From positions 1,116,001 through 1,180,000 of the forward strand of contig NW_027191405.1 of the NCBI RefSeq assembly GCF_041146345.1: DNA of 64,000 nt, written 5' to 3'. Below the pieces are notes generated by a model, which saw only the letters and a program-made list of their open reading frames with translations, was not told where the DNA came from and did not search any database. A program made the position numbers and the translations under genes. Shown piece after piece: positions 53,783 through 56,416 of this stretch (the first letter of the stretch is position 1; the number at the start of each line of letters is the position of its first letter). This DNA comes from Neodothiora populina (taxonomy: Eukaryota).

Positions 53783-54070
53783 TACAACACCAAGGACCAA
53801 TTTAACCAGTCACTCTGCTAGTAGGGTCACAAAAGTAAAGGCCTGCATATGACGACTGTGGTGTTGATGAAGGAAGGAGAACCTGAATGATCGATGATTG
53901 CCGAATGCGATAGATGACCCTGTCCACACAGCACCAAGCATCCGTGCGTCGTTCTCCGCATAAAGCGTAAATAGTTGCGCAAGTCCGGCAGACAAATGAG
54001 AGTAAATATATTTATACTCAAGTCTTTTCTATCGTTAATCCATAGAACAAGCAAGGAAACATCGATTAGG

Positions 54071-55013
54071 ATGGTTCTGTACTTTACCAGCAATGTGGTG
54101 ACGCCTTCGGCGTACATCTACATGGGAAGAGACAAAGTTGAGAGTCAGCAATTCCAGATTTCAAGCGCGAAGCATTGCGACATGTACTGACTGGATTAGA
54201 GACGAGGACCTGATCAAGCATGGATGGGAAGAAGATGTCTGGTAGGTGTGACTGTAGTCAGTCTAGTAGACACCTAGAGCATAATTACTTACATGCTATA
54301 TCGAACAGGGTACGAAGTGTAAATGCGCATCGAATCGAGCTATGAATGCTCATGCGCCAAACAGTTTCACGTCGACAACCTGTCCAGTGCGCACGTCTAC
54401 GTTCGACTCCCAGAGGGTGACAGCTGGGACGACATTCCCAAGCCACTTTTGACCGACTGCGCTCAGTTGACAAAGGCCAACTCTATCGAGGGTATTTCTA
54501 TACATGCAGAGTGTCATCGCTGAGCCATCATAAACGCTGAGACGGTGACCAGGAAACAAAAAGGACAATGTCACGGTCATCTACACGCCATGGTCCAATC
54601 TCAAAAAGGACGGCAGCATGGCTACGGGTCAAGTCGGCTTCAAGGACAACAAGAAAGTCAAGAGAGTCTACGTCGAGAAGAGGGAAAACGCCATCATCAA
54701 TCGACTGAACAAGACCAAGGCTGAGAAGTTCCCCGACCTTGCAGAGGAGAAACAGAACAGAGAGAAGGAATTGAGGAAGAAGGATCGATCGCTGCTGAAT
54801 GCCAGGGTGAGTAGAGACTTTGTGGTGTGCGAGCAAAGGAAGATGGCTGACTACTCTCTACACCAGGCCAAGGAGGAGGCTCGCATCGCAAAGGAGAGAA
54901 AGCAACTCGCCTACGATCGGGAACACAGATATGATTACATGCACGACGAGGAGACTCTGCAAAGCTCGAGCAACCAGGACCGGGATCCAGACTTCCTGGA
55001 CGATTTCTTCTAA
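54071..55013 (+). CDS. CCDC25: CCDC25/Jlp2-like NFACT-R domain protein
   Basis: [68 protein letters not shown]. Exons 54071-54143, 54202-54241, 54309 (1 nt), 54365-54491, 54553-54806, 54867-55013. Confidence 0.9.
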
Positions 55014-55407
55014 CGTAATTTGCTGTGGTAGTCTGTCATACTAAAGCCAGCGTTGATATAGACAACGCTTGAAACATAGCTGGACTGAACGAAGCCCTAG
55101 GTCATTCACCGATGTTAGTCGCTGCACACAAACTTGTCTCTTGATGCTCGTAGCAATAAAGCAATTGCCATGATTAATGATACATATTGTTATCAGAGTA
55201 GATGACCCCGGATCTACTTGTACCACATTAAACCCCGCCTCGGCGGGCTAAAGACCGATAGCCCCAGCGGCGTCTCTGCTTCTGCTGCTGCAGCTTCTCC
55301 AAGTGGCACGTCATTCCTGCTGTAATTAGTGTATATTATTATTGTTTTGCCTGCGTGTAATGTGATTTCCGAACCAACGATAATCGAAACAGAACCAGGA
55401 CAGGATA

Positions 55408-56416
55408 ATGGCATCAGAGGACAAGTTTGCGATACATGCGGCGTGTCGTGACGGACAGAGTGAGTAGCATATCTTCATATATCATATATTGCCCTACCAC
55501 GCTGATTACCTCAAATGGCTGACTGACACAATTGCATGTGCACTACAGCGAATCTCGTCGAAGCTCTGTTGAATGTACATTTCTCACCCATGCCTACCCT
55601 GAGTTTTGAACCAGCAAACGATGACCGAGATGTTAACTCTTACTCCCACAGGCGAATCTCAAGCTCTCAAGTCGCCGCGACGATGACGACCGGCTTCCGA
55701 TACACTGGGCAGCTTCGTACAACCGCCTACCCATCGTCGAAATGCTCACGGAACGAAAAGACTCCGACGTGGACGCTCAAGTAAAGCACACCCTATCAAG
55801 AAAAGGCCTGGGCCAAACGAAGGACAAACTAACAAAACACGCACAGGACGGCGCAGGCTGGACCTGCCTGATGATCTCGAGCTCTCTAAAAGACGGCGAC
55901 AGCCTGGTGGACCTGCTGCTCTCCAAATCCGCCGACCCCTCCATGACGACGCACCAAGGACAAACAGCACTGCACTTTGCCGCGAGCAAAAACAACCTCG
56001 ACACAGCCAAGAAGCTCATTGCGCACAAGGCGTCGGCCAGAGTCAAGGACAAGCGGGGCCAGCTGCCTCTGCATCGCGCTGCTGCGGTCGGGAATGTGCC
56101 TATGGTGAAGTTGTTCCTGGAGAGTAAGAGTCCGGTGAATGCTACGGATGTGGATGGCTGTACGGCGCTGCACCATGCCGTTGCCGAGGGCCATGGTGAT
56201 GCCGCGCTTGTCTTGCTCAAGGCCGGCGCCGAGACGGACAAGAGGGATCGCAGTGGTGCGTTGCCGCTGGATCTGGCGCCGGATGCGAAGGTGAGTGTTT
56301 TGGGAGGCTTGTCTTGCTAGTCTGTATGCGAGGCTGAACTGTTGCTGACTATGAGAACGACACAGGTCAGTGGATACATCAAACGCGCGGCCGAGGAAGA
56401 AGGCATCGAGATATGA
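55408..56416 (+). CDS. NAS6: Proteasome assembly chaperone Nas6/gankyrin (ankyrin repeats)
   Basis: Ankyrin repeats RLPIHWAAS, GWTCLMIS, GQTALHFAASK, GQLPLHRAAA, GCTALHHA. Introns 55460-55548, 55575-55651, 55781-55846, 56291-56365. Confidence 0.85.

Follow-up and report, generated by a model that had tools for sequence, protein, structure and literature searches.

Evidence for a one-nucleotide exon between two separate introns in the CCDC25/Jlp2 gene of a dothideomycete fungus

How does a gene complete a tryptophan codon when one coding block breaks off after TG and the next begins with TTT? This question is raised by a gene on the forward strand at 54071-55013 of a 64,000-nucleotide stretch of Neodothiora populina DNA (positions 1,116,001 to 1,180,000 of contig NW_027191405.1; the whole stretch is called the window here). 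The gap between the TG ending at 54241 and the TTT starting at 54365 measures 123 nt (54242-54364). A first-pass annotation, made from the letters alone, had claimed that removing this gap as one intron would shift the frame, and our computation agrees: when 54241 is joined straight to 54365, the frame shifts and a stop is reached at codon 67, upstream of two exon junctions. The same annotation placed a single exonic G at 54309 between two introns, and all the letters and positions on which it relied were found exactly in place, including sub-introns of 67 and 55 nt.

Judged by its sequence, the gene is an orthologue of CCDC25/Jlp2, which carries the NFACT-R domain, in a dothideomycete fungus. 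The exon at 54365-54490 matched the Pfam family NFACT-R_1 (PF05670) with 39.7 bits (cut-off 29.8), and the exon at 54555-54806 scored 25.5 bits, which is under the cut-off by itself. In addition, the largest exon shares 82-90% identity with proteins named DUF814-domain protein or coiled-coil domain-containing protein 25, nearly all of them from Dothideomycetes. Both marks of CCDC25 membership, the NFACT-R_1 domain and full-length similarity to named orthologues, were thus found. We take CCDC25/Jlp2 to be a conserved ribosome-rescue gene; a preprint reportedly describes Jlp2 as a release factor in ribosome stalling. The exon map is as follows:

54071..54143, + strand, coding part of exon 1: ATG at 54071, reads ...DKVE and ends in phase 1; the RNA contig begins at 54054
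54144..54201, + strand, intron 1, 58 nt: donor GTCAGC, branch-like TACTGAC, tandem acceptor TAG-AG; RNA joint 54143>54202, GT..AG
54202..54241, + strand, exon 2, 40 nt: ends GAT GTC TG, the TG being the start of the Trp codon
54242..54308, + strand, 5' sub-intron (A), 67 nt: GTAGGT...AACAG, phase 2; homologous position in 29 loci
54309, + strand, one-nucleotide exon: the single G that completes TGG, the Trp codon of EDVWFHVD, as its third base
54310..54364, + strand, 3' sub-intron (B), 55 nt: GTACGA...AAACAG, phase 0; the sole intron in loci L002, L003, L004 and L006
54365..54491, + strand, next exon, 127 nt: starts TTT CAC GTC GAC and ends ...ANSIE plus G; NFACT-R_1 domain
54492..54552, + strand, intron, 61 nt: GTATTT...ACCAG; RNA joint GT..AG with the cut at +1
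54553..54806, + strand, exon, 254 nt: (G)...LLNAR; bounded by RNA joints
54807..54866, + strand, intron, 60 nt: GTGAGT...CACCAG, branch GGCTGAC; RNA joint
54867..55013, + strand, last coding exon: TAA at 55011-55013; the RNA contig continues to 55110

The six exons including G54309 join into a CDS of 642 nt, which encodes 213 aa, is free of internal stops and keeps EDVWFHVD intact.

To describe the splice signals, AACAG-G-GTACGA at 54304-54315 (AGGGT core, 54307-54311) is the sole AG-G-GT within 54242-54364. One other AG-N-GT is present in the gap, at 54316, and would retain a T; it was ruled out as the core, since the RNA retains a G. The G at 54309 between introns of 67 and 55 nt is the only GT-AG solution, and these two lengths compare with 58, 61 and 60 nt for the other introns of the gene. 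A canonical acceptor AG stands directly before the base and a canonical donor GT directly after it, and both flanking introns are complete, each with a donor, a branch site, an acceptor and a viable length. Their branch motifs in the window, ACTTAC (A) and GCTCAT (B), are non-consensus and of the YTNAY type only. Such an arrangement is rare by chance: when the gap was shuffled 20000 times with its dinucleotides preserved, an AGGGT that leaves at least 45 nt on each side occurred in 64 shuffles, and YAG-G-GTRNG in 5.

Assembled contigs of three public runs (X1, X2 and X3), none of which is on record as RNA, were compared with 53950-55150. X1 and X2 come from the same sample; X2 is recorded as 'DNA?', and its transcript nature was recognised by its joints alone. 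One contig of 777 nt in X2 (depth 13.3) matches 54054-54143, 54202-54241, 54364-54490, 54552-54805 and 54866-55110, and because it matches the window in five pieces it derives from a spliced transcript. Three of its joints are GT..AG and skip 58, 61 and 60 nt. At the fourth joint, 122 of the 123 nt between 54241 and 54365 are removed; the cut can be shifted by up to two places, so that GT..CA, TA..AG and AG..GT fit equally, none of them canonical. The mRNA reads GATGTCTGGTTTCAC at this junction, i.e. GTCTG-G-TTTCAC (in the longer form, GATGTCTG-G-TTTCAC), which is the mRNA that the first-pass annotation had predicted. With the kept G identified from the splice signals, the extra base is contiguous with neither flanking exon. 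Only the correctly spliced form was found in X2, as one assembled contig, and contigs are blind to intermediates, minor isoforms and the order in which introns are removed.

At the DNA level, the X1 contig (word depth 34.6) equals the window without any difference, and X1 may be the source of the window. The X3 contig, from another study, is unspliced, has 221 nt and is identical over 54273-54493, a stretch that takes in the AG-G-GT core as well as the 3' boundary and lies wholly downstream of 54241. X3 carries another organism code, and since its contig is identical to the window, the same or a nearly identical fungus was present in that sample. Past 55110, the X2 contig has 21 more letters that matched nowhere in the window; they may come from a join made in assembly, from a distant splice in the 3' UTR or from an adapter.

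Related loci in metagenome contigs were searched with a profile led by the window's exon, which gave 593 pattern matches, 143 of them confirmed; the best 80 were kept, with 45-88% identity to the window over that exon. The DNA was read between ...D-V/I-TG and TTY-CAY, a site that 74 of the best 80 loci reach, while 6 end upstream. Among these 74 readable loci (from the best 80 of 143), TG|GT...YAG-G-GT...AG|TTY was found in 29 and an uninterrupted TGGTTY in 41. The other four (L002, L003, L004 and L006) read TGG|GTAYG...AG|TTC; here the 5' sub-intron is gone, deleted exactly at its predicted boundaries. The 5' intron alone was found in none of the 74. Conservation of the AG-G-GT core in related genes had been put forward as a check on the first proposal, and the core is indeed kept in all 29 loci where an additional base is required; no locus among the 74 needs the base and lacks the core. 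Across the loci with this layout, the sub-introns range from 49 to 81 nt (5') and from 48 to 120 nt (3'), and the median is 56 nt for either. From one lineage to another they have no sequence in common, and nothing in them apart from the splice signals is conserved; the core has been kept in orthologues while the intron sequence diverged.

In addition, 19 of 24 non-redundant lineages have a CTRAY motif at a distance of 5-45 nt ahead of the internal AG, compared to about 14% expected by chance (binomial p 1e-12). The 5' half thus has its own branch motif, which a single long intron would not need, and this favours two introns. In the 3' sub-intron, CTRAY occurs in 9 of 22 lineages only and YTNAY in 19 of 22. 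In 12 of 22 lineages, the one-base exon is followed by the donor GTATG. AG at +3 to +7 of that donor is found in 5 of 22 lineages versus 48 of 95 control introns (Fisher p 0.03), and T at +4 in 13 of 22 versus 21 of 95 (p 0.001). This depletion of AG is no more than suggestive of selection against a competing acceptor; the lineages are related, and shared descent of the GTATG donor would explain it equally well. No similarity between the two sub-introns of a locus was detected in 30 of 30 cases (z -1.2 to 1.7). A tandem-duplication origin of the pair has accordingly left no trace, a result that is uninformative if the pair is old.

Taken together, these results indicate, with a probability of about 0.92, that G54309 is a true one-nucleotide exon between two separate canonical U2-type GT-AG introns. 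The first-pass annotation had argued that this base is needed for the Trp codon, and the spliced contig, the 213-aa frame and the AG-G-GT core in 29 loci all speak for it. The comparison among loci is the strongest line of evidence and appears to settle the case.

Three other explanations were weighed against this reading. One undivided intron of 122 nt, its ends non-canonical (GT..CA, TA..AG or AG..GT) and the AG-G-GT within it coincidental, is equally compatible with the X2 contig taken alone. The contigs hold no intermediate, and the internal branch motifs of the window are weak, as such an intron would allow. It would leave to chance, however, a mid-gap AG-G-GT that arose in only 0.3% of shuffles and that recurs in all 29 loci needing an extra G, where the remaining intron sequence is unrelated. 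It also gives no account of the branch motif that the 5' half has of its own in 19 of 24 lineages, or of the four loci that retain only the 3' half, beginning exactly at the internal GT. Moreover, such an intron would be twice as long as the others in the gene (58, 61 and 60 nt), and we consider it very improbable. Alternatively, the assembly may have lost a G at 54240-54242, the true sequence being TGGGTAGGT (three G), so that TGG|GTAGGT would open a canonical 123-nt intron. The DNA check on this point is narrow, in that X1, the sole full-length one, may be the window's own source and X3 begins at 54273. Against a lost base, the X1 contig agrees without difference at a word depth of 34.6, TG|GT is also found in 29 independently assembled loci, and the 123-nt intron would carry the conserved AG-G-GT for no reason. 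The chance of such an error is, in our estimate, close to negligible.

The third explanation is compatible with a one-nucleotide exon and concerns its role: the exon would be a regulated switch, the skipping of which gives a frameshifted, NMD-targeted transcript and so tunes CCDC25/Jlp2. Skipping does lead to the stop at codon 67, upstream of two junctions, and the layout is kept in many lineages. On the other hand, the skipped form is absent from the contigs, which show no minor isoforms, and the sub-introns have no conserved sequence beyond the splice signals. Furthermore, the layout was lost outright in 45 of the 74 readable loci, through at least 5-9 inferred loss events, which suggests that it is dispensable and makes a switch less likely; we regard this role as unlikely.

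On this reading, both are ordinary U2-type introns that abut one G, and they would be excised consecutively, not simultaneously. Consecutive removal is proposed on the ground that U1 pairs with donor positions -3 to +6, so that a U1 snRNP bound at G|GTACGA would mask the acceptor AG just upstream. If intron A were removed first, the donor context would become TGG|GTACGA, and if intron B were removed first, the acceptor context would become CAG|GTTTCAC; either would be a normal substrate. The G would suit both consensus contexts, after AG and before GT. Use of the one-base exon is probably constitutive, and the layout has been lost repeatedly, both introns together in some cases and the 5' intron alone in the Aureobasidium clade.

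The breadth of the layout was explored with a quick maximum-likelihood tree of 81 rows (80 loci and the window) and 52 named anchors over 213 columns; its deep nodes are poorly resolved, so the placements of loci are approximate. The window was placed near Aureobasidium and Elsinoe. Loci with the one-nucleotide layout fell with Dothideomycetes (L001 with Delphinella, L039 and L040 with Cenococcum and Glonium, and L046 and L077-L079) and with Sordariomycetes (L026, L031, L032, L034, L035, L048, L073, L056 and L065). L026 groups with the Neurospora anchor, and the protein of L034 shares 91% identity with Cercophora newfieldiana and other Sordariales. L063 and L071 joined an onygenalean anchor (support 87), L041 lies near lichen-forming anchors, and L070 joined the pezizomycete anchor Kalaharituber (support 96) within a clade of support 98 that also holds L044, L049, L050, L052, L059, L066 and L067, all with the layout. 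L076 is on the Saccharomycotina side of a branch with support 98; the best named matches of its protein are Lipomyces and Trichomonascus, at 67% only. The four loci that keep the 3' intron (L002, L003, L004 and L006) form one clade with Aureobasidium (SH-aLRT 100), beside the intronless L005. On this tree the intron state needs at least 6 changes.

By these placements, the one-nucleotide layout appears to be an old feature of the gene, common to loci that group with several ascomycete classes. We tentatively suggest, as a possibility that we would not put above a modest chance, that the exon arose before the Pezizomycotina radiation, perhaps before the split from Saccharomycotina-like lineages (in view of the place of L076 in the tree). 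Nothing but the AG-G-GT constraint would have preserved it for all that time, and its stepwise decay would offer a general, stwintron-free route to one-base intron 'sliding'. If so, it would be one of the oldest and most widespread ultra-short fungal exons; loss of the 5' intron leaves a phase-0 intron, as in the Aureobasidium clade, and loss of the 3' intron would give one in phase 2, displaced by a single base.

Two observations concern the neighbourhood of the site. In L036 (1700-1860) and L038 (330-494), both Teratosphaeriaceae-like, the Trp codon has no intron, and a different phase-0 intron lies 8-9 nt upstream, GAG|GT...AG|GAC ATC TGG TTC. Loss of the intron pair often accompanies loss of the neighbouring SIEG/NKKD intron while intron 1 is kept, as noted from L070 (1872-2246) and the many loci without an intron at the Trp codon. 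Intron 1 was found in 67 of 81 rows, the exon 3/4 intron in 38 of 81 only. The joint pattern of loss fits a putative partial replacement by spliced cDNA.

Public protein models carry a mark at the same place. When 28 public orthologues were aligned, several models were found to fail exactly at the Trp, e.g. EED-FHVD in Cryomyces and Cenococcum, and odd inserts were present there in three records named Elasticomyces. FH[VA][DE] was present in 254 of 317 public proteins examined. It is preceded by ...[VIL]W in 169 of these 254 models, 120 of which have 213 aa, the same as the window's CDS. Exactly VW is missing (ED|FHVD) in 43, 40 of which have 211 aa, and 42 show other oddities at the Trp spot (EDVCVR, EDVWY, EDVWW) or a missing or truncated N-terminus. 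The models without VW include, in Dothideomycetes, Cryomyces, Phyllosticta, Cenococcum, Glonium, Lophium and Bathelium and, in Sordariomycetes, Madurella, Chaetomium, Thermothelomyces, Corynascus, Ophiostoma, Sporothrix, Apiospora, Coniella, Biscogniauxia and one Fusarium.

The VW deletion would be expected if a predictor took an in-frame false donor, GAY|GTNTGG, and so ended the exon six bases short of the true mRNA. The link between such a model and the one-nucleotide layout is direct only for the Cenococcum-like loci L039 and L040; the models of other species that lack VW may likewise reflect a one-base exon. These faults form a systematic annotation error, one by which species with this exon can probably be recognised. 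A eukaryote-wide profile search, with 146 further representatives (proteins only), found VW missing in P0320, P0331 and P0404 only, and these look ascomycete-like by their N-termini, read by eye, a result that speaks neither for nor against the exon beyond ascomycetes. At least 43 of 254 public CCDC25 models miss two residues of the NFACT-R domain, and the rule TG|GT...AG-G-GT...AG|TTY would correct faulty ones.

One-base exons have already been published, and the CCDC25 case is a new, widely conserved instance; no open-access literature linking CCDC25, Jlp2 or DUF814 with a microexon was found. The closest fungal example is the one-nucleotide exon of the Fusarium CYP621A P450 genes (Nelson and Syed, 2026; PMC12940212), called by its authors the first in a fungal gene. 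Like the CCDC25 exon, it lies in a fungal nuclear gene, has an identical AG-G-GT core, looks like one over-long intron, is kept among orthologues and defeats automatic models; a mismatch of phase first pointed to it, and RNA reads bore it out (PMC12940212). The base is the middle of a Gly codon in CYP621A and the third of a Trp codon in CCDC25, and the CYP621A exon was described from 20 orthologues in one genus (PMC12940212), whereas the loci with the CCDC25 exon are spread over several ascomycete classes by their grouping in the tree. In the basidiomycete Coprinopsis cinerea, a long-read annotation lists 13 exons of 1 nt in 13 genes (PMC12230235). One-base exons can thus recur within a fungal genome, and their omission breaks gene models, as in the ascomycete case of CCDC25 (PMC12230235); the text of the supplements, in the portion available, holds no mention of the CCDC25 family.

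In plants, mutagenesis of the 1-nt microexon of Arabidopsis APC11 proved that the base is copied into mRNA (PMC4674806), and the 1-nt microexons of APC11 and VPS55 span land plants, with misannotation and intronless derivatives (PMC8831610). They resemble the CCDC25 exon in lying between two GT-AG introns, in being conserved over a large clade and in leaving gaps in annotation (PMC4674806, PMC8831610). The plant exons are described as constitutive, and their intronless copies are explained by reverse-transcribed mRNA (PMC4674806, PMC8831610). The APC11 base is an A behind an upstream intron of 333 nt (PMC4674806), whereas that of CCDC25 is a G, assigned from the splice signals.

The nearest fungal concept is that of stwintrons and the one-nucleotide intron shift in Pezizomycotina; in a stwintron, one intron sits within the donor, branch site or acceptor of another, and this outer intron is canonical only once the inner one has been excised (PMC5587772). 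The CCDC25 pair shares with it two short U2-type introns in one intervening region, consecutive removal, positions one base apart and, upon DNA-level loss of one intron, a canonical intron left behind. It differs in that the primary transcript contains each of the two introns whole and one base stays in the mRNA. The first-pass annotation had related the exon to stwintron architecture; this holds for two U2-type introns removed in succession but not for the defining feature, since in the DNA each intron has its own undamaged GT and AG and neither breaks up a splice signal of the other, so that the pair is not a stwintron. The stwintron readings [D1,2] and [A2,3] were tried by hand on 54240-54366, and none gives canonical signals. 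Recursive splicing works through AG|GT ratchet points, or zero-length exons, which leave zero bases in very long animal introns. The CCDC25 pair has in common with it a juxtaposed acceptor and donor and a first reaction that rebuilds the next 5' splice site, but it leaves one base and both of its introns are of about 60 nt.

One-base exons are a limiting case of exon recognition, and few are documented. The CCDC25 exon lies in a small, conserved, single-copy gene of many ascomycete lineages, including ones that group with genetically tractable fungi (L026 with the Neurospora anchor). Moreover, the natural series of loci with both introns, with only the 3' intron and with none could reveal how two spliceosomes handle splice sites that abut, and in what order. 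What sets the CCDC25 one-base exon apart is how widely it occurs across ascomycetes, together with the systematic annotation error to which it gives rise.

Further features were noted at the other introns of the gene and downstream of it. The donor of intron 1, GTCAGC, is unusual, and its acceptor is a tandem TAG-AG at 54197-54201; the RNA contig takes the distal AG, and the proximal AG would shift the frame. The last intron (54807-54866) is in frame and stop-free, the ORF at 54549..55013 being open across all of it, so its retention would add 20 residues and would not truncate the protein. Downstream, a + strand gene with short introns (55410-56200, ATG near 55410) looks ankyrin-repeat-like by eye.
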